A stretch of DNA of 24,481 nt from Bacteriovoracaceae bacterium (GCA_049599895.1 JBMYPC010000036.1:1-24481), one strand, 5' to 3'; positions 12,990 through 24,481 are shown, numbered from the stretch's first letter. A program made the numbers and translations. Notes: generated by a model from the sequence alone, not told the origin.

Positions 12990-14642
12990 TTAGTCTGTGT
13001 CCTTTGGGCAAGCCACGGCCTTTAACTTTTTTACAAATTTGGCTTCACTAAGTTTCCCGGGAAGCCCATTATCCTGGACTTCATACCATTCTGGCGATTG
13101 ATCACTATCGTGACAACTTAGACATTTGCCTTGCATGGTTTTGTACTTCTTTTCATAGTCCACAGTTTTCTTTTCACCAGAGAAGTTCTCAAAAGGATGG
13201 TCAACATGTTTGTCATGGCAATTGAGACATTGAACATTGGCAAAATTATGGGTGATTTTGTATTTTTCTTCGAGGGCCGAAAGATCTTTAGCGATCTTTT
13301 TGGTTTGTTTTGTTGAAAGGTCTCTTACCGTCCCAGGAAAATCGAAGGCCTTATCAACTCTTCTCATGTATCGTTCAAGGTTCTTTGCTTGTTCCTGTTC
13401 ACTTAAAGCGTCGTTAACGATGGCAATCTTTTTTGAATGCCTATAACCTTTCGGATCATTATTGCCGACACTATGGCATTTAAGACAGCTCATATTATTT
13501 TCTTCTTTGGCCTTAATCAATGTCCCATAGGCAATAGAGTGAGCGGTTCCCTGCCAAAAATCACCTTGAGCTGAGTGACATTCCATACAACTATTGGCGG
13601 TGTTATAGGGGAAGACTCCATCAAGAGCATTTGATTTTTTAAAGAGTGCATCTTGTTCGGCAACTTGAATCTTTTTTAGCTCTTCTTTGTGAGCACCGAT
13701 CCAAGCAAGAAAAGGATTGGGCTTGAGTTTATCTTTTTGCTCATCTCTCATCTCATGGATCAGGTACTGATCCCCTGAGCGATCCTTCGTAAGATCAAAG
13801 ACAATTTCTCCAAGGTAATGATTACGAGAAAGGACTTGGACGATTTTTGTCTTTCCAACTTTACTAGGAGTTCTTAAAAACTTCTGTGAGTGGGCGCCAA
13901 TAATCCAATCAAACATAGGAAAAGTCTTGGCAAGCTTTCGGTCTTCTTCAAAGCCAGAATGAGAAAGAAGGATCAGCCTGTGAAATGGATTTTTCTCTTT
14001 ATAACCTTTTTTCTTAATGAGTTCTAAAACTTCATTGATCGCAATTCTTGGTGCTTTGAAATGTTTTGCATCCTCTGAGTCTCGAATCAGTGAAGGGTCA
14101 AGAACTCCTACGAGAAAAAGATTATGAGGGCCTTTTTGAATAAGATGAAATTTCTTATTCTTTGAAAAATATTTTGAGTCATCTTTGAGATTCGAAAGAA
14201 GAGTGGCAAAGTTTCTTTCTTTGATAATCTCATCAAGCTTAGCGACTCCTTCTGCAAGATCAAAATCTCCTGGCACAAAAAACTTAAGCTTCATCAGATC
14301 AAGTCCTTTAGCAAGGTTTTGCGCTTTAAAGAGAAGACTTTTTCTTAAAGAAACAGGGACATTATTTGTGTCAAAAAGAGTATCACCTGTATCCACATAA
14401 AATGTGGGATGATCAGATTGAATCTCATGAACTTTCCCTGCAAATTGCGGAAGTCCACCAAGAGGATGATGACGGCAACCACAAGGGTGGGTCTCACCTA
14501 AAATGTTATGGGAAAAAACTAAAGAAAGTTTTTTGTCCTCGATATTTGTGACGGAAAATTCAGGATCTCCAAAGGTCTCTATAAAGTAGGAACAAGAGGC
14601 GCTAAAGAGAATCAGAAGAGTTAAAAAGAAACGTGTTTTCAT
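12990..14642 (-). CDS. Lipoprotein: UshA/5'-nucleotidase-like metallophosphoesterase domain fused to a c554-like tetraheme cytochrome c
   Basis: Lipobox-like FSASC. PCGC...GGL, DTGD, LSHSG and GAHS motifs. Four CXXCH: CMECH, CLKCH, CLNCH, CLSCH. Confidence 0.85.
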   Translation of the reverse strand: MKTRFFLTLLILFSASCSYFIETFGDPEFSVTNIEDKKLSLVFSHNILGETHPCGCRHHPLGGLPQFAGKVHEIQSDHPTFYVDTGDTLFDTNNVPVSLRKSLLFKAQNLAKGLDLMKLKFFVPGDFDLAEGVAKLDEIIKERNFATLLSNLKDDSKYFSKNKKFHLIQKGPHNLFLVGVLDPSLIRDSEDAKHFKAPRIAINEVLELIKKKGYKEKNPFHRLILLSHSGFEEDRKLAKTFPMFDWIIGAHSQKFLRTPSKVGKTKIVQVLSRNHYLGEIVFDLTKDRSGDQYLIHEMRDEQKDKLKPNPFLAWIGAHKEELKKIQVAEQDALFKKSNALDGVFPYNTANSCMECHSAQGDFWQGTAHSIAYGTLIKAKEENNMSCLKCHSVGNNDPKGYRHSKKIAIVNDALSEQEQAKNLERYMRRVDKAFDFPGTVRDLSTKQTKKIAKDLSALEEKYKITHNFANVQCLNCHDKHVDHPFENFSGEKKTVDYEKKYKTMQGKCLSCHDSDQSPEWYEVQDNGLPGKLSEAKFVKKLKAVACPKDTD

Positions 14643-16486: not shown

Positions 16487-19318
16487 ATGAGCAATAAATC
16501 AACGAATTTTAGAATATTATTGCCAATATTTCTGATTCTCGGAGCGATTTGGGCAGTTGAGCTTAGCGCAGATGTTACGCAGATTCCTGATAGCGATATT
16601 AAAGACCGCATCAACACAAGTTATGAATTTAAACTACCCACGAAATATGGAACAGCGCATTTCAAGTTCCACTTCAATAAAGGTCATGTTGATTTTGTCG
16701 CCAGATCGGAAGAAATTCTAAGGCAAACCTTTTATAAAGTTGTCGATTACTTTCAGTTTGTCCCAGATGCACCAATTAATATCATTGTGAACGGTGCTGT
16801 TTTTCAATCCAACGGTTCTGCCACTGTTTTCCCCCAGCTTGTGATTAATCTTTTTGATTATCCTCCTATGGGAATTGAGCACCTTAATACAAGTGGAGAT
16901 TGGCTTCAAAACTTAATTGTTCATGAGATCATTCACGTTATCCATCTTGCTCAAATAAATGGTGTGAATAAGGTCATTAACTTTCTTACCGGTGCAGGCC
17001 GATTAATGCCGATGATTACTCCGAGATGGTTTACCGAGGGGATTGCTGTTTGGGGGGAAACAAAGCTCACTGAACAAGGACGCCTTCGTAATTCATTATT
17101 TAGTTTTGAAACAAAAAAAGCTCTTCTTCATCCAGACTCATGTCGTGCAGTTGGTTGTTTAACGAACCCTGGTATTTATCCTTTTAGGCAGTTTCCTTAT
17201 TGGGTGGGAGCTTTCTTTTTAGATTCACTTGAAGCTGAAAAGCCTGGGACAATTAAATGTCTTGTGGAAGCAAACTCAAGAAAGATTCCTTATTTTCTCA
17301 ACTGGAGTTTTAGAGATTGTATTGGAAAAAATGCTGAGCAAAAGTTTCAAGAGTTCATAACAGATTATATTGATCGCTCCATTAAAGATGTAAAAAACTT
17401 TAAAATCCCTGGGGTCTTTGCTGATTATAAGGCCATGGACTTTGGTAAGGATCAGATTGCTTATCAGTCGGGGATGAGTGTTATTGGAGAGAATCTTTAT
17501 CTTAAACAGATTGGTCAAAGGGTGAGTAAGCTTAGAAAGATTAACCTTAACGATGGCTCTAGTGAAATTATTGATACCGAAAAAGTTTTAAGAAGCTTTT
17601 ATGATTATGACAATAAATTAGTCCTCGCCTCGATTCCTTATAGAGACGATATCCCTCTTGATTATTCTTTTCTAAAAGAAGGGAAGACTGAAGAAGAGAT
17701 CAAAACTCATAAGAGTTATCTTTATTACTTTGAATCTGAAGGCATGAGACTAGGTCTTGGCTATAAACATGGAAGATGGAGGCTTTATAAAGAAGTTGAA
17801 GCTGAAAAGAAAAAGGATCGCGCGAAACTGATTTATACCTTTCCTTATTCTTGGCAACTTTATCAACCATTTAAAACTCAATACGGAGTAAGGTTTTTAG
17901 CTTTTGATTCAAAGACCCAAAGATATAGTTTTCATGAATTTAATTTTAAAAAAGAAAGGCCTTTTGCCTTGTTTGAATTTAAGGGAACTGTGCAGGATTT
18001 CTTTTCTTGTGAGAAAAAAGTTTACGTTCGAATTGATCGTGAGCTTTTTGAGTTAAGAGAAAACTCTGGTTTAAGGCACAAACCTTCATGGCTAGATGAA
18101 GTGGCCTTTATGAGATATGGGAAAAGCCATGGTGTTGTCGCCTTTAAAAAGCTTCCTGTTGATCTTTATTATAGTAAAGGGGGCTGTAACGAGCTTTCAC
18201 TACTTATTAAGAATAAGGCCTCCAAAAAAGTTTCCTATCAAAAACAAAAAGAAGTTGAGACTGCTTCTCCAAAAACTGCTCAGAATACATTAACCGATAA
18301 AGTTTCAAAAGAATCTTCAACTTATTCTCCTCTTGGGCTGCAAAGGTTTAATTATTGGCTTTTAAATGGAAGTTTTGATGAAAATCTTCAAAACTTAAGC
18401 TTTGATACCAACTTGAGTGATCCTGGACAAAGGCTTAGCTTTAACCTTGGAGCGAGACAATATTTCGAGCTTGAAGAAACCGGTTATAACGTTGGGACGG
18501 CATGGAATTTTATGTCGAAATGGTACCTTGGTCTCAATACTTCAAAAGGTTATGGTTATTCAGGTTTTGCTGATTTTATTTCAAGCTATGAATCTCATTC
18601 AGCTTATGTGAGATGGAGAAAGTCCTTTGGACGTTTTGAATACATTCCAACTGTGGGCTATTCAGAAGGAGATTCTAGCGATTTTATCTCTAATAGGAAG
18701 TCTAAAAACTATAGCCTTACTCAAACTCTAGCGATGAAGCCAAGAAAGTATGATGATTTCTGGCACCAGTTTTCATTTCGAACAGTTACCACGAGACAAG
18801 AGACACTAGGGCGATCAAATTTCTTTTCCGATGAATACTTTGTAAATTTTATTTGGAAATATAATCATAATCTTAAGCAAAGCTTTAGTTTGACTTACGG
18901 AAAGAACCACAAAAAAGACCTTGGTTCAGGGGCTATCTTTGGTGGGCGAATGGGCTCACATAATGTTCTTGGAATAGCAGCCCAAGATCTTTTTGGAAAC
19001 GAAATCTATACTTTACGAACTCAATTTGATTTAAAGATTGCTCATCTTTATAAGAGTGCGACGTTGTTTCCTTTAGGAACTCAAGAGATTTTCATTCTTG
19101 CTGGAGTTGAGCGCTTTAAAAGTGATTTTGTTTATATTGATGATACGCTTTGGGGAAAGAATGAACTGAACTCTTATCACGGTGGTGTTCGTTTTAAGAT
19201 GCTGGCTTCATATTTCATAAATATCGATGTTGATCTTCTTTATGTCGTGACGGAAAAGCCAAGCGGTGACGATTTCGGAGAATATGTTCCAACAATTCAG
19301 ATGTCTTATTGGCCTTAA
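16487..19318 (+). CDS. Large exported protein: gluzincin-type HEXXH domain plus putative C-terminal outer-membrane beta-barrel
   Basis: Signal peptide. HEIIH followed by PRWFTEGIAVW. Aromatic beta-strand-rich middle and alternating amphipathic strands in roughly the last 300 aa. Confidence 0.65.
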   Translation: MSNKSTNFRILLPIFLILGAIWAVELSADVTQIPDSDIKDRINTSYEFKLPTKYGTAHFKFHFNKGHVDFVARSEEILRQTFYKVVDYFQFVPDAPINIIVNGAVFQSNGSATVFPQLVINLFDYPPMGIEHLNTSGDWLQNLIVHEIIHVIHLAQINGVNKVINFLTGAGRLMPMITPRWFTEGIAVWGETKLTEQGRLRNSLFSFETKKALLHPDSCRAVGCLTNPGIYPFRQFPYWVGAFFLDSLEAEKPGTIKCLVEANSRKIPYFLNWSFRDCIGKNAEQKFQEFITDYIDRSIKDVKNFKIPGVFADYKAMDFGKDQIAYQSGMSVIGENLYLKQIGQRVSKLRKINLNDGSSEIIDTEKVLRSFYDYDNKLVLASIPYRDDIPLDYSFLKEGKTEEEIKTHKSYLYYFESEGMRLGLGYKHGRWRLYKEVEAEKKKDRAKLIYTFPYSWQLYQPFKTQYGVRFLAFDSKTQRYSFHEFNFKKERPFALFEFKGTVQDFFSCEKKVYVRIDRELFELRENSGLRHKPSWLDEVAFMRYGKSHGVVAFKKLPVDLYYSKGGCNELSLLIKNKASKKVSYQKQKEVETASPKTAQNTLTDKVSKESSTYSPLGLQRFNYWLLNGSFDENLQNLSFDTNLSDPGQRLSFNLGARQYFELEETGYNVGTAWNFMSKWYLGLNTSKGYGYSGFADFISSYESHSAYVRWRKSFGRFEYIPTVGYSEGDSSDFISNRKSKNYSLTQTLAMKPRKYDDFWHQFSFRTVTTRQETLGRSNFFSDEYFVNFIWKYNHNLKQSFSLTYGKNHKKDLGSGAIFGGRMGSHNVLGIAAQDLFGNEIYTLRTQFDLKIAHLYKSATLFPLGTQEIFILAGVERFKSDFVYIDDTLWGKNELNSYHGGVRFKMLASYFINIDVDLLYVVTEKPSGDDFGEYVPTIQMSYWP

Positions 19319-20181
19319 GGGTTGTAGTAACCAGCTTCTTTAAGAAGCTCGAGAATTTCATCAAGCTTTGAGAAATACTTGTCTTCTGTTTTTTTCGTCT
19401 TAAAAGGACGCCAACCGGGAAGCTTGTCTTGTCCGTCAGTATCGGACATGGCATATCGGATAGCTTCACGAACATTGGTTTCATTGAATTCAAATTCTTC
19501 ATATTGAAACTTCTTCTTTAAAGCTTGGGCCCAAATAAATTCAAAATAGGGAATCTGAACTTTTTTGATGGCCTTACTCTTTCTCACTAACCAAGCAAGT
19601 CCACGATAAAAATCAAAATCAAGTTTTTTAAGCTTTTTGGGAAGATTATGATAATCAGTTTCACTATTTTGTTTTACTGGATAAATAAATTTTCGGCTTT
19701 TCATCTTCTCGATGAATTCATCCTGACTAAGATCAGAATAGTCTCCAAGCATTTTATAGGTCATTTGAAATTTTGAGACATCAAGATCTTTGCGCTTTTG
19801 AAGCTTTGGATAAATTTTTTGGAGAGTGTACAGGGTATGGTGGCGATCGAGAATCCATTTTTTGCCATCAGGCCCAAGAATATAAGGGATTGGTTTATCG
19901 GCAAGAATTTCAAGAATTCCATCCTGGTCAGATTTGAGAATTTCATTTTTAAAAACAATGATCCTGGGAATTCCAATCACGTGTTGAGTAGGGTGAACTT
20001 CATCAAAAACTTTGCCCAATTGTTGCCTGTGAACTTTAATCGGAACCATGTCCGAAACAGAGGGAGGGATCTGTCTGAGATTTTTAAAGATTTTAACAAG
20101 ACAATAAAACCGAACGTCTTTTCCCTTCGCATGAGCGAATTGGCAAAAGAGACTGAGGACAATGACCAGCAGTGTTTTCAA
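19315..20181 (-). CDS. ParB-like (ParBc_2 type) protein with signal peptide
   Basis: HPTQHVIG, ILGPDGKKWILDRHH, DFYRGLAWLVR and YFEFIWA motifs. Signal peptide ending FAHA. TTG start with AGGA upstream. Confidence 0.8.
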   Translation of the reverse strand: MKTLLVIVLSLFCQFAHAKGKDVRFYCLVKIFKNLRQIPPSVSDMVPIKVHRQQLGKVFDEVHPTQHVIGIPRIIVFKNEILKSDQDGILEILADKPIPYILGPDGKKWILDRHHTLYTLQKIYPKLQKRKDLDVSKFQMTYKMLGDYSDLSQDEFIEKMKSRKFIYPVKQNSETDYHNLPKKLKKLDFDFYRGLAWLVRKSKAIKKVQIPYFEFIWAQALKKKFQYEEFEFNETNVREAIRYAMSDTDGQDKLPGWRPFKTKKTEDKYFSKLDEILELLKEAGYYNP

Positions 20182-20317: not shown

Positions 20318-21910
20318 CTAGTCCCAAGGGCAATCTATTGAAGGCCAGGTACTAACATTTCGAGTGCTTGATCCGAATTCAGGACTGTTTTTTGTTAGAA
20401 TAATATCTTTGAGTTCATATTCAAGAGTTTGCTCATTAAAACGCAATATGGAAAAGTCCACCGTGTAGTTGAGATAGTTTTTGTTACCTACAGTTCCGCA
20501 TTTAAGGCTACCAGTCTCGCAGACCTTTTTGTAATAAGGAGGCCAGTGGCCAAAAAAGCTTATTCCTTGAATTCCTTGATCATCCGAGAGGTTTCCACGG
20601 TGATTGCCTTTTTGATCGATTCCTCTTAAAGGGCTAATGGTTGGAATGTCTTGAAGAGTTTGTAAATCATCAATTGTTGGAATACCTTTTAAGAGTGCGG
20701 AAGAAAACTGTCCTGTAGGTAATCCAGGAAGTGCTCGAAATAATGGCTTGAGTTCTCTGTTAAGGATTGCAAGATCAACTTTTGGGTCACGCATTTCAAA
20801 AGAGAGGCGATACTTCTCACCTTCTTTAAATTGATGGCCTTTGACCTTTTGATAGTCTGTACTTAAAACACCCTGCCAGTTTGGTGGGGCCACTCCACCT
20901 TCATGCCAGCTTTTGACAAACTTTGGTCTGCTCCCCTGTTCAATTTTAAATAGATTCACTTTTGCAACAAATGGCTTTTGAAAGTCACAGGCACTTGTGC
21001 AAAGACCATCTTCACATAAAGTTTTTTTACAGATGTTATTCACAAAAAGATGGGATTTTAAATAAGAGTTCTGTTCATCTTTCCGAATGCTAATTTTTCC
21101 AACTTCGTGCTCAGGTAAAAAGTATGTATTGATAAAGTCGGGGTATTTTCCAATTCGAAGCTCACTGAGTTTAGTCATTCCCTTTAAAGGGTCCAGTCTT
21201 GCATGAACAACTTTTGATCCAAGTAAATTAAAGTCATCTGTATTACCAGTATCATTGGCGGCAGTATTGATTGTCAGATAAGAGGTGACTTCCATTGAGC
21301 GAAGCTGATTCTGTTTAAGATAGCTTTTATCAAGGCAGTTAGGATTGATATCATAAGAGAGAATGAATTCACTATCTGGAAAGATTCTAAAAAAACAAGT
21401 TCCTCCTGCTACAATGGCCTCTTGAGGATCGAGCTTATTAATGGTGCAATTTCTTTGATTTGGTCTATAGCTAAGCGGGCGAGTTGATTTATGTTTTACT
21501 CTTCTTACTAGGCAATGCTTATTAAAGTTCTTTTTATCTTCGAAATACTTTTCTCTTTCAGAGAAATTGAGGCTTTGGAATTTGGTATCTTTGATTGAGC
21601 AAAAGTCTTCTTGGAGTTTTCCATCATAATAGACTTTTAGATCGTTGGCATCATGTCCATATTCAATAGGGCCAAAACCAATGAGAAGAAGTTTTCTTTG
21701 CCGTCCTGCTTCAGCACAGTTAAAAATTCTTGTACCAGGAATTTGATTTGATCGATTAGGTCCTTCGAGACGATAGGGAAAGGATAAGTTTTTATCAATG
21801 TTGCCACCATGATAAAGAGTATCATGACCATGAATCTTACAACCTGGGTTCTCTTGAGAAAGAACCGAGAAGCTGAAGAATAAAAGAAAAATGGCAATAA
21901 TATTTTTCAT
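20318..21910 (-). CDS. Hypothetical secreted Cys-rich protein
   Basis: 530 aa ORF with signal peptide (MKNIIAIFLLFFSFSVLS) and 14 Cys. No recognised catalytic motif. Confidence 0.8.
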   Translation of the reverse strand: MKNIIAIFLLFFSFSVLSQENPGCKIHGHDTLYHGGNIDKNLSFPYRLEGPNRSNQIPGTRIFNCAEAGRQRKLLLIGFGPIEYGHDANDLKVYYDGKLQEDFCSIKDTKFQSLNFSEREKYFEDKKNFNKHCLVRRVKHKSTRPLSYRPNQRNCTINKLDPQEAIVAGGTCFFRIFPDSEFILSYDINPNCLDKSYLKQNQLRSMEVTSYLTINTAANDTGNTDDFNLLGSKVVHARLDPLKGMTKLSELRIGKYPDFINTYFLPEHEVGKISIRKDEQNSYLKSHLFVNNICKKTLCEDGLCTSACDFQKPFVAKVNLFKIEQGSRPKFVKSWHEGGVAPPNWQGVLSTDYQKVKGHQFKEGEKYRLSFEMRDPKVDLAILNRELKPLFRALPGLPTGQFSSALLKGIPTIDDLQTLQDIPTISPLRGIDQKGNHRGNLSDDQGIQGISFFGHWPPYYKKVCETGSLKCGTVGNKNYLNYTVDFSILRFNEQTLEYELKDIILTKNSPEFGSSTRNVSTWPSIDCPWD

Positions 21911-21937
21911 AAAAAAAAAGGTCTCCCGAAGGAGACC
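21911..21937 (-). terminator. Intrinsic terminator
   Basis: Minus strand reads GGTCTCC-TTCG-GGAGACC followed by 9 T, 12 nt after the stop of the 270 aa gene. Confidence 0.9.
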
Positions 21938-21949
21938 CTAAAGCTCTAA

Positions 21950-22762
21950 TTAAATGTCGCTAGGATCAACAATCGTTGTCTTAACTTTTACTCTTGCACC
22001 ATGCTTTCCATTTGGACGACGATCAAGAGAGTTTTCTTTGAAGTAGTATCTTGTGACACACTTGCCAGGAGCATTTCCACCAAGGCTGTGGTTTGACCAA
22101 AGAGTCTTTGCACTAACATTCGCTGATGTCCAGTCTGCACTTTTCTTTAGTACACCATCACAGTAAAGTTCTCCCTTTACGAGAAGACCTGAAAGCGATC
22201 TGTAGTTGTTGTTATAGAGGCTTGCAAAAGTTAATTCAGACTTTGCAACAAAATGTGTTCCAACTGGTCCACTGTGAAATCTTGGTCCGTAGTAACATAC
22301 GTCGATGAAGTACTCTGTTCCAAATCTTTCAGTTGAAAGTTCAAACTTTAAGTAAGTGAGAACTTTGTTTTTTTCGTTAGCACCGTCAAAGTCAACTTTG
22401 TGCTTTGTAAGGTCAGTTGTATAAAGATTTTGAAAACCAGTTGCTGTTACATAGTTATTTGATCCATCAGATCTTTTTCTTGTTGTAGAACCAGCATCAG
22501 TAAGAGTTGATGTCCAAATATCAAATGTTCCCATTTTATATTCGATTACATCTTGTAAGTACTCACCGCTGTCATCAGTTGTAACTGTTCCGTTACCTTG
22601 AGTGTCAGAAGCATTGCCTGCAGGGTTAACGTGCTTGATACCAGCATTACATACATAAATGTCTGGACCACTTGATTGAACATCAAAAGTGAACTCACTT
22701 GTGATTGCATGTGCGTTTGTCGTAAGACCTACCAACGCCATTAATGAAATAAGTTTTTTCAT
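21950..22762 (-). CDS. Hypothetical secreted beta-rich protein (270 aa)
   Basis: Start moved to MKKLIS (ATG 22762) because GGAGG lies at 22767-22771 and this gives a clean signal peptide ending NAHA. Thr/Ser/Gly/Asp-rich with 4 Cys. Confidence 0.85.
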   Translation of the reverse strand: MKKLISLMALVGLTTNAHAITSEFTFDVQSSGPDIYVCNAGIKHVNPAGNASDTQGNGTVTTDDSGEYLQDVIEYKMGTFDIWTSTLTDAGSTTRKRSDGSNNYVTATGFQNLYTTDLTKHKVDFDGANEKNKVLTYLKFELSTERFGTEYFIDVCYYGPRFHSGPVGTHFVAKSELTFASLYNNNYRSLSGLLVKGELYCDGVLKKSADWTSANVSAKTLWSNHSLGGNAPGKCVTRYYFKENSLDRRPNGKHGARVKVKTTIVDPSDI

Positions 22763-22797
22763 TTTTCCTCCGGTTAAACAAACAAGCCAAAGAGACT

Positions 22798-22826
22798 TTA
22801 TCGGCATTGTTTGAGTGTTAATTTTA
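22798..22826 (-). promoter_or_regulatory. Putative sigma28-type promoter
   Basis: Exact GCCGATAA at 22805-22798. The upstream TAAA is spaced 17 nt away rather than the canonical 15. Confidence 0.45.
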
Positions 22827-22890
22827 TGGTGTATGTGTATGAAAAAAAATAGGGATTGCCAATGATTCTCTGTAAAGTTTTTGCAAAACT

Positions 22891-23442
22891 CTAATCAATG
22901 TTTTGAATCGTGTAGAAGCCTGTGTCTAGGTAGGTCATTTTAAAAAAGACATCGTCACAAATGACGTACTTAACGTCATTAACATGACGGTTTTTTGTTT
23001 TTTCAAAAACGATTATCGGATCATTATCAACTTCACTTGGACATAGGTTGAGAAATCTTTCTTCGAGAATAGGATCGTTATAACGATAAACTAAATTCAG
23101 AAAACTCTTTTTATCAATTGTAAGAAAGCCATCGTTTAATAGAAAATCTATCATTTCATTTTCAGAAATAGTCTCATTGGAGTTCAAATAAAGTGTCCCA
23201 ATATTTTCAAAGAAATGGGTGAGCCTTAATGAGGCACCAATACTATTGGTCGTAGGAGTTTCGTAGATTAAGCACTGGTTTTGATTCTGGCAGAGATCCA
23301 TGCAAAAAGTTTCATCGGCTTCGCATTGAAAGCTTAAAAGCTTCCTTAAATCTTCGTTATATTCAATATTGGTTTCAAGGCCAAGGGCTTGCAAGCACCA
23401 AAAGAGGATAAGACCTAAAATAGCGAAATGTCTCATTGGCAA
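22891..23442 (-). CDS. Hypothetical secreted acidic Cys-containing protein
   Basis: Signal-like N-terminus and six Cys in the mature part (C-x5-C-x3-C-x5-C cluster plus two more). The start may be the second Met at 23436, which gives an ATGA overlap. Confidence 0.75.
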   Translation of the reverse strand: MPMRHFAILGLILFWCLQALGLETNIEYNEDLRKLLSFQCEADETFCMDLCQNQNQCLIYETPTTNSIGASLRLTHFFENIGTLYLNSNETISENEMIDFLLNDGFLTIDKKSFLNLVYRYNDPILEERFLNLCPSEVDNDPIIVFEKTKNRHVNDVKYVICDDVFFKMTYLDTGFYTIQNID

Positions 23443-24479
23443 TCCTTTGGAATTTTGGGTTTCATCGGTCTACAACTTTTTCCGGAGAGGCCTCGTGCTC
23501 CTCCAATTGTTCTTGATTCAATATGTGAGGTCTTAATTTTAATTTTCTCTTTGCAGCCACTGTACTTAATTTCATAAGTACGACTTGATATCTTTTCAAT
23601 ATTAGTGACGAGACCAAGGTTGAATGGATCAAGAGTCGAGATTAGTTTTTCTTCACATGAGCTGAGAAGACAGCGTTTTCCCTTACTGAGCTTTTCAACA
23701 CACTTTTTTGGGATCTTTCCAAATTTATTATAAGTTTCCATTAAGTGGTTTAGATTAACTTTCCAATCTCTTGGGACATCGTGAGGGTCTTTAAGACCTT
23801 TAAAGAGGCGTACAAATGCTCTCACTACATACATAATGCCGCCGACAGGACCAGCAAAACCAGAGGCGAGAGAAGCAACCGATTCAAAGTTGAGGCGACA
23901 GTCAAAACAGAACTTTCTCTTTGTCGGTTTGTCTGTTTCTATTTCCGTTGCTGAATAGACTGTGATGTTTCTTTTTTGAGCTGTATGGCAAAGACCAACA
24001 GAAATTCCGTTAAACTGATAAAGGGAATTCTGATTGATTCTAGGCCCGGAAATCGCGATGGCGCAAGGAGCACCAAAAAGTGGTCCAAGGTCTAAGGAGA
24101 GGGCGACATCAAGTTTCTTTTTATCTTTTATAGGCTCGTATTCAATTTTCCCTTCTTCGACAAGAGTTTTAAAGCTTGTGACTCGTCCAGGCTTTAAGTC
24201 GATTCTTGAATAGAGAAGGCCCTTAGAAAAAAAGCTAATAGCTGCATTTGCAAGGTCTGAGAAAAAGGCCACAAGTGAGGCTTGAGTTTTATACCAAGGA
24301 TCATAGACTTCACATGCGACTCTTTCAGCGTAGGGATTAAAGGCGCCTGGAGAGTTTTGAATTTGAGTGGGAAAGAACGCGGCTTGAAATTTTGAAACTT
24401 TATAGAGATCAACGATTGAGCTTAAAACTAATCGAGCACAATCAATTGGAGAATAACAAATCTCCGTATCGATTCCACT
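23433..24479 (-). CDS. Hypothetical Cys-rich protein (5' partial)
   Basis: Manual translation shows no in-frame stop from 24272 to the window end (SGIDTEICYSPIDCARLVL...ACEVYDPWYKTQASLV), so the gene begins outside the window. Confidence 0.8.
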   Translation of the reverse strand, partial: SGIDTEICYSPIDCARLVLSSIVDLYKVSKFQAAFFPTQIQNSPGAFNPYAERVACEVYDPWYKTQASLVAFFSDLANAAISFFSKGLLYSRIDLKPGRVTSFKTLVEEGKIEYEPIKDKKKLDVALSLDLGPLFGAPCAIAISGPRINQNSLYQFNGISVGLCHTAQKRNITVYSATEIETDKPTKRKFCFDCRLNFESVASLASGFAGPVGGIMYVVRAFVRLFKGLKDPHDVPRDWKVNLNHLMETYNKFGKIPKKCVEKLSKGKRCLLSSCEEKLISTLDPFNLGLVTNIEKISSRTYEIKYSGCKEKIKIKTSHIESRTIGGARGLSGKSCRPMKPKIPKDCQ

Positions 24480-24481
24480 TT

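Follow-up and report, generated by a model that had tools for sequence, protein, structure and literature searches.

To our knowledge, the donor-strand pili of diderm bacteria that use N-terminal donor strands depend on an usher. Donor-strand pili that form without an usher, namely the TasA-like and WxL pili, have been described from cells with one membrane, as far as the accessible text of the two reports goes (10.1101/2024.12.30.630787, 10.64898/2026.10.17.759780). This study concerns a cluster of four genes on a contig of a Bacteriovoracaceae bacterium (GCA_049599895.1 JBMYPC010000036.1:1-24481); the entire contig of 24,481 nucleotides is referred to as the window, and the studied part comprises positions 20318-24481. 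With a probability of about 0.62, these genes are four of the five core members of a module of the Bdellovibrionota, a diderm phylum, whose product is a thin surface fibre, assembled by donor-strand exchange under the guidance of a chaperone and probably with no usher involved. The module is real, conserved and apparently undescribed, no published account of it having been found in a search that was thin on subscription journals, and it likely represents a new chaperone-guided pilus pathway, known here from sequences and models. The genes, named A to D with their families in brackets, and the predicted donor strand are as follows.

21950-22762, minus strand: gene B (c0), 270 amino acids (aa), predicted major fibre subunit, with a Sec-type signal at residues 1-19 and a disulfide-bonded beta-sandwich model
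22667-22705, minus strand: predicted donor strand, mature B residues 1-13, x-F-x-F-x-V-x-S-S-G, from conservation, models and covariation
20318-21910, minus strand: gene A (c4), 530 aa with 14 cysteines, predicted two-domain beta-sandwich assembly chaperone, from its AlphaFold2 (AF2) model, fold matches and pairing with B
22891-23436, minus strand: gene C (c3), putative small secreted cysteine-rich accessory protein, 181 aa from the ATG or 183 aa from the TTG at 23442
23433-24481, minus strand: gene D (c1), partial and open at the contig end, the last 348 aa of a putative large accessory protein that is secreted and unlike an usher

A preliminary description of the window had reported four co-oriented genes, and their open reading frames (ORFs) were confirmed on the minus strand (23433-24479, 22891-23442, 21950-22762 and 20318-21910) with the sizes and signal-like N-termini given there. 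The cysteine counts also agree: 13 in the partial D, seven in C of which one lies in the signal peptide (so six), four in B and 14 in A. Sequence inspection and a hydropathy scan identify the N-termini of A, B and C as basic and hydrophobic stretches of the Sec-signal type. For C, the ATG at 23436 is a likelier start than the TTG and overlaps the stop of the upstream gene as ATGA. The proposal that the genes belong together holds, but the cluster is larger than the four genes: profiles from relatives place a fifth gene (c2, about 180 aa) and the start of D at the end of contig C83, with the N-terminus of D at C83:13273-13701 and its middle in an assembly gap. The most likely operon order is c2-D-C-B-A, with the gap inside D and the join suggested by the gene order in relatives; a metagenome scan returned nine distant loci, none of which spans the gap.

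The chaperone-usher pili (type 1, P, CFA/I, Csu) resemble the module in having a diderm host and a Sec-type signal, in an N-terminal donor strand, which in B is predicted by models and covariation to run antiparallel to the last strand of the acceptor, in an adjacent two-domain beta-sandwich protein, A loosely resembling the PapD type in its model, and in donor-less paralogues as possible tips. They differ in that no usher was found in the 97% complete module genome (PF00577 profile, control found in E. coli) and the module has no match by sequence among the fimbrial or PapD families; moreover, the B model is as near to jelly-roll domains as to pilins, the second wall of its groove is an internal strand, and A, with 512 aa as compared here and seven possible disulfides, is accompanied by three additional uncharacterised proteins. 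In the WxL/Elr pilus of Enterococcus, with ElrD as pilin and ElrE as DUF916/DUF3324 chaperone, donor-strand exchange is likewise guided by a chaperone without an usher, and WxLIP is the best fold match of A (Z 8.8). However, Elr is described as limited to Bacillota, sortase-anchored and served by a membrane-anchored chaperone in the available part of the report (10.64898/2026.10.17.759780), whereas the module host has an outer membrane and A lacks a membrane anchor (no 19-residue stretch after the signal exceeds a hydropathy of 1.14). None of the 146 c0 members matched the WxL Pfam family at E <= 0.05, and A gave no DUF916 match.

The TasA superfamily (TasA, CalY, AbpA/AbpX, CanA, thread, tafi) shares with B a Sec signal followed at once by the donor strand and a beta-sandwich subunit of comparable size, and the TasA fibre is among the tied fold matches of B. 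Unlike it, the module has a diderm host and a dedicated four-gene partner set; TasA-like filaments are described as confined to monoderm cells, at least in the accessible text (10.1101/2024.12.30.630787). The TasA family Peptidase_M73 (PF12389) was matched by 0 of the 146 c0 members and its profile found nothing in the genome, with the control found in B. subtilis; no signal peptidase was matched among representatives of the conserved module genes, to which that scan was confined. In curli, a small protein donates beta-strands to an oligomeric outer-membrane pore for the fibre subunits, which offers an analogy to c2. The curli system differs in that the genome yielded no CsgG match (PF03783 profile, control found in 4 of 14) and that B, by prediction, folds as a disulfide-bonded domain instead of forming a repeat amyloid. 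The known surface fibres of Bdellovibrio (type IV pili, MAT trimeric fibres, MIDAS adhesin) occur in the same organisms, where thin polar fibres are partly unassigned, but have other genes and another architecture than the module. Cryo-tomography revealed fimbriae of 3-4 nm without basal machinery on the biting pole of B. bacteriovorus, which are left unidentified in the available text (10.1101/2022.06.13.496000). A 2026 review ties the polar fibres to MAT fibre proteins, and its accessible passages on fibres, pili and adhesins omit the module (PMC13689555).

The evidence for a donor-strand fibre centres on B. Its AF2 monomer model (146 sequences) is all-beta, with a predicted local distance difference test score (pLDDT) of 93 and a predicted template modelling score (pTM) of 0.90; residues 1-14 are unpaired in it, and four cysteines are invariant across the 146 aligned sequences. 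The donor-strand segment begins immediately after the signal peptide: mature positions 5, 7 and 9 are hydrophobic in 90-97% of sequences and positions 4, 6 and 8 in at most 8%, after which comes S-S-G. In the trimer model, residues 6-13 of one copy run along the next one, antiparallel to its residues 232-240 and parallel to its residues 121-123, with a score of 0.77 against 0.00 for the best of three controls, contact agreement between runs of at least 80% and a partner pLDDT of at least 83. Of 30 known self-pairs, 20 attained the mark set for this score, as did 1 of 23 single chains; these figures are only a rough guide for three copies and an alignment of our own construction. Covariation links F7 with F121 (z 6.2), V9 with Y132 (z 6.8) and D8 with R238 (z 5.2), and its best registers (sum 246, difference 112) match the trimer model; the 25 model pairs have a mean z of 0.72, compared with -0.06 for all donor pairs, and none of 20 shuffles reaches it. 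Covariation and trimer model are not independent, because both used the same alignment. Residues 15-24 also covary with 131-139, a pairing that puts residue 15 far from the groove entrance, and it is therefore unlikely that B fills its own groove. Judged by these models, polymerisation of B through donor strands appears likely, so that the 270 aa protein is, by prediction, the polymerising beta-rich subunit that had been suggested. The donor motif, recorded by a pattern that overlooks a handful of clear cases, occurs in 49 of the 56 B genes followed by A and is missing in 13 of the 15 lying only behind A. An extra N-terminal domain is found in several donor-less paralogues, and C-terminal collagen repeats (E 9e-20) in one member of the B family outside the module; such proteins would suit fibre tips.

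The AF2 model of A (75 sequences, pLDDT 86, pTM 0.84) is mostly beta and bipartite, and mature residues 375-434 (window positions 20609-20788) form a disordered loop in it. Among 48,161 chains, its top fold match is WxLIP (Z 8.8, root-mean-square deviation (rmsd) 7.3, 246 residues aligned), and pilus chaperones account for nine of the top 15. Eight of these top matches are chaperone-usher chaperones (Z 4.8-7.3, rmsd 5.7-6.9): the CfaA complex (Z 7.3, rmsd 5.9, 202 aligned), CsuC (Z 6.8, rmsd 5.8, 190 aligned), YadV, the FimC complex, CupB2, the PapD complex, EcpB and FaeE. According to the accessible text, a DUF916/DUF3324 protein of the WxLIP family chaperones the donor-strand pilus of Enterococcus (10.64898/2026.10.17.759780). 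The models thus make A a plausible cognate chaperone of B, a lead that is strengthened by the tight pairing of the two genes. Across the family, the loop at 375-434 has a hydrophobic residue at roughly every third position, the intervening residues often including Gly or Pro, and it is possibly a decoy or a membrane-touching segment.

On a broader scale, 122 relatives of B were found at E <= 0.001 among cluster representatives. A pattern scan with one genome per species yielded 49 loci, many of which stop at contig edges, in Bdellovibrio, Halobacteriovorax, Bacteriovorax and related taxa (four titles are vague), in agreement with the host phylum that had been considered for the window. The names of the closest named c2 relatives likewise make Bacteriovoracaceae the probable family of the host. 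BLAST clustering placed all four window families in 32 of the 49 loci and all five in 30; c3 was found in 35. An even draw of 251 genomes across the phylum, the window's own included, gave profile matches for B in 45, for A in 47 (one marginal, E 3.7e-4) and for c2 in 46. Each of the 45 genomes carrying B also has A, and 43 have c2, which bears out the expected co-occurrence, in counts that draw on related, non-independent genomes and on profiles made from loci found via B. A lies immediately 3' of 56 of the 90 distinct B-family genes, the order otherwise varying, and two genomes (L069 and L070) carry two B-A pairs each alongside a single c1/c2/c3 set. B is present in 25 of 57 other genomes of the host's family, which makes the module accessory. 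Two copies exist in B. bacteriovorus HD100, Bd2925-Bd2930 and Bd0749-Bd0754, the latter assigned by accession order, names and gene sizes.

Variation around this core was also recorded. Bd0749, a B paralogue, carries the label 'pilus assembly protein' in published tables. One genome (L071:307-11148) has a single c1/c2/c3/c4 set surrounded by six B-family genes, perhaps a repertoire of subunits, and B-family genes outside the module (L035:7980-9584, L016:7992-8879, L023:10085-11380) may be orphan tips or subunits. A sixth family, c5 (about 400 aa; Bd0748), occurs in 25 of the 49 related loci, e.g. L027:11469-12665 and L036:11790-13007, and was not found in the window's genome. It has an invariant D-C-A-D and His, presumably akin to those of papain-like/NlpC-P60 enzymes, with a weak DUF4846 match in 8 of 24 members (best E 1.6e-4), and could process or anchor the fibre where present.

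The donor-strand evidence (monomer, trimer, covariation) would also serve for a self-assembling matrix fibre like TasA or the archaeal cannulae, with B leaving the periplasm folded, through type II secretion or another general route, and polymerising outside, and with A, C, D and c2 as nucleators, tips or anchors. The TasA fibre 8aur is indeed a fold match of B (Z 4.8, rmsd 3.9, 131 aligned), at a tied rank of 13, and the partners of B are all disulfide-rich, as is often the case in extracellular proteins. Bd0751 and Bd0754 increase 2-5 fold in host-independent growth, as far as the accessible data go (PMC2797640). Yet the best fold matches of A are chaperones, A is duplicated along with B while c1/c2/c3 stay single, and both the failure of all 146 members to match the TasA Pfam family and the reported limitation of TasA-like filaments to monoderm cells (10.1101/2024.12.30.630787, available part) speak against such a fibre, which we consider rather improbable.

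The remaining three genes may provide the platform and the exit for the fibre. The C family has four invariant cysteines. At residues 64-67 of the window's C (23240-23253), Thr and Ser replace a C-x-x-C kept in at least 90% of the aligned relatives; C has lost both cysteines of a likely disulfide together. Most relatives of D have 820-930 aa and about 22 cysteines, and the family shows only three strongly alternating strands in 915 positions, unlike a barrel; D as a divergent usher was rejected on this ground and on the lack of any usher match in full-length c1 relatives. In c2, two strands (82-90 and 120-128) alternate between hydrophobic and polar residues across 161 sequences; their ends are aromatic, and there are invariant glycines. 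A weak antiparallel ladder of covariation, on sums 205-211, points to a single long hairpin spanning residues 70-138. A c2 oligomer is a candidate outer-membrane pore, a speculative proposal drawn from sequence features and the weakest step of the mechanism. Two c2 matches occur without B or A (G156:C1:2800951-2801355 and G218:C1:3206567-3206968), and c2 may serve other cargo.

In the proposed mechanism, B would be exported by Sec and, after cleavage of its signal, fold as a disulfide-bonded beta-sandwich with an open groove, which A, as suggested by its fold likeness and gene pairing, would cap in the periplasm until assembly. Residues 6-13 of B would then fill the groove of the next subunit, giving a head-to-tail chain. 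The long amphipathic beta-hairpin of c2 could mediate oligomerisation into an outer-membrane exit, D and C could act as the assembly platform, as their sequences hint, and in other genomes donor-less B paralogues would cap the tip. The likely use of the fibre would be adhesion to surfaces, biofilm matrix or prey, outside the standard attack phase.

Three elements bear on the expression of B.

21911-21939, minus strand: hairpin resembling an intrinsic terminator, with its U-run, between B and A, from a folding test
22767-22771, minus strand: GGAGG ribosome-binding site of B, from sequence
22798-22826, minus strand: possible FliA (sigma28) promoter TAAAA-N17-CCGATA upstream of B, one mismatch, not conserved in the family

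The internal regulation proposed for B stands as far as its elements are concerned: the GGAGG (22771-22767) lies 4 nt upstream of the ATG, the GCCGATAA octamer of the -10 element is found at 22805-22798, and the terminator stem (21939-21918) with its U-run has a z of -2.67, with 0 of 200 shuffles folding equally well. A hairpin below -10 kcal/mol occurs in 36 of 56 c0-to-c4 gaps, counted without a shuffle control. The ATG of A comes directly after the terminator with no obvious ribosome-binding site; the terminator and the strong ribosome-binding site of B would yield many B per A. The sigma28-like motif class is in use in the host genome (33 of 52 motif matches at spacing 15-17), but the score of the B site is reached by 2 of 89 family upstream regions against 1 of 89 on the antisense control, and conserved sigma28 control of the family was rejected. 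With 26 genes from the ribosomal cluster as codon reference, one of them probably not ribosomal, B stands at the 99.5 percentile among 2378 ORFs, two flagellins at 98, c2 at 75, A at 26, D at 10 and C at 6. In the accessible data of the HD100 cycle proteome (2195 proteins), Bd2927, which is the principal B homologue in the second copy, is the sole detection among the 12 tags searched, which did not include Bd2928, and its level, from 11 unique peptides, stays flat at 4.9-5.5 through the cycle (PMC12546842). Codon scores and this detection both favour the earlier expectation that B is more highly expressed than its neighbours. Six HD100 tags had no match in the available transposon-screen supplement, which possibly uses the tags of another strain (PMC6561027).

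The module is unlikely to produce, instead of a surface pilus, a short closed oligomer or a structure that stays in the periplasm or is bound to the envelope. Such a product would fit the lack of any known outer-membrane assembly protein in the usher and CsgG scans of the genome and in the strand analysis of D, as well as the observation, noted for WxL in the accessible text, that donor-strand trimer models can close into rings (10.64898/2026.10.17.759780). Rare periplasmic filaments have also been seen in B. bacteriovorus, according to the available part of that study (10.1101/2022.06.13.496000). Set against this are the paralogues with variable extra domains, including collagen repeats, as in adhesin tips, and the high codon adaptation and dedicated terminator of B, which suggest a long polymer.

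An attack-phase apparatus, which had been proposed for the window, would have the fibre contact prey and the c2 hairpin insert in the prey membrane, and would be the source of the polar fimbriae of 3-4 nm, whose lack of basal machinery at the biting pole is compatible with it (10.1101/2022.06.13.496000, accessible text). The presence of Bd2927 in attack-phase cells (PMC12546842), the 2-6 fold lower expression of all of Bd2925-Bd2930 in host-independent cells (PMC2797640) and the FliA-like site upstream of B in the window also agree with such a role. In the same host-independent cells, Bd0751 and Bd0754 go up and Bd0750 and Bd0752 go down. However, all 12 HD100 module genes are classed as silent in RNA-seq of the attack phase and the 3 h growth phase in the available tables (PMC3627812), the microarrays show no clear change of module genes on prey entry (PMC2797640), B has a patchy distribution (25 of 57 family genomes), and the 2026 review connects the polar fibres with MAT fibre proteins (PMC13689555). 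Because the module genes are silent in RNA-seq, Bd2927 is flat and the sigma28 site is not conserved, an attack-specific role is not supported, and the apparatus is quite improbable, though it keeps a small probability for this organism.

That the genes are unrelated secreted enzymes, as the source names 'protease' (c0, c2) and 'cation-transporting ATPase' (c3) imply, is largely refuted by the lack of any enzyme family match, by the nature of c3, a secreted protein of 190 aa in which no long hydrophobic segment follows the signal, by the all-beta fold of B with its donor strand and by the strict co-occurrence of the genes; these database names were rejected.

In line with the preliminary description, which had recognised no enzyme motif, searches of the five module families against Pfam, NCBIfam and PDB sequences returned nothing above the cut-off (for c2, one representative in Pfam and a profile in PDB). 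The best E of six profiles in PDB sequences was 0.19; B had no like chain there, its four matches all having E >= 0.19, and A had no Pfam match at E <= 0.1. The ESM Atlas gave no feature matches, its models being of low confidence with a TM below 0.5 by query. The idea that c0, c4 and c1 are paralogues was rejected, because only the signal peptides align between their profiles.

Several results weigh against the interpretation of the module as a chaperone-guided surface fibre, besides the alignment shared by covariation and trimer model. The fibre is known from prediction only and none has been observed. According to its models, B is without a clear structural relative: its best fold matches are galactose-binding-like domains (Z 5.8, rmsd 3.7, 116 aligned), the TasA fibre, RrgB and CfaE follow at Z 4.8-4.9, CfaE (Z 4.8, rmsd 3.6, 122 aligned) being tied with unrelated rows, and all of these Z values lie within the common range. 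No Pfam fimbrial match occurs in the 146 members, and Foldseek with B returned nothing with a TM above 0.3 of the query; other pilin families missing from the fold lists are not thereby excluded. For A, the fold matches have rmsd values of 5.7-7.3 Å, a single one has a Z above 8, antibody Fabs and CEP192 appear between them, and Foldseek gave no convincing match. Two-domain beta-sandwiches are common, and A is twice the size of the matched chaperones. No lipobox was seen in c2, nor a C-terminal aromatic residue, and its hairpin could instead pack inside a soluble fold. Expression in HD100 adds the silence of all 12 genes in RNA-seq, the absence of Bd0749-Bd0754 from the 2195 proteins of the proteome and the middling level of Bd2927 (5.0, compared with 8.3-8.7 for two abundant proteins), the last two as far as the accessible proteome data go (PMC12546842).

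Other genes of the window lie beside the module. Directly downstream of A, on the same strand, is a ParB-like nuclease with an N-terminal signal-like stretch (19315-20181; PF08857, E 2e-32), which in relatives lies outside the module. Next to it, positions 16487-19318 encode a secreted-looking protein of 943 aa, in which an HEIIH motif resembles that of zinc peptidases and the C-terminal part is aromatic and rich in beta structure; it has no Pfam match, and its weak flagellinolysin match (E 2.5e-4) is far below the cut-off. A protein of 550 aa (12990-14642) has four C-x-x-C-H haem-binding motifs near its C-terminus and an N-terminal region which we take to be metallophosphoesterase-like.

Donor-strand assembly by a subunit and a chaperone-like protein, with no usher and in a diderm phylum, would need another route across the outer membrane. 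As a tentative extension, less probable than the fibre itself, the module may be a new Gram-negative pilus pathway in which a donor-strand fibre has its own chaperone and a c2 hairpin pore on a cysteine-rich D/C platform, and which could explain some of the 3-4 nm fimbriae of Bdellovibrio. The analysis corrects the 'protease' and 'ATPase' labels of these operons, offers a candidate for the thin fimbriae seen by cryo-tomography, and gives testable identities to the operons Bd0749-Bd0754 and Bd2925-Bd2930 of B. bacteriovorus, a genetically tractable predator.

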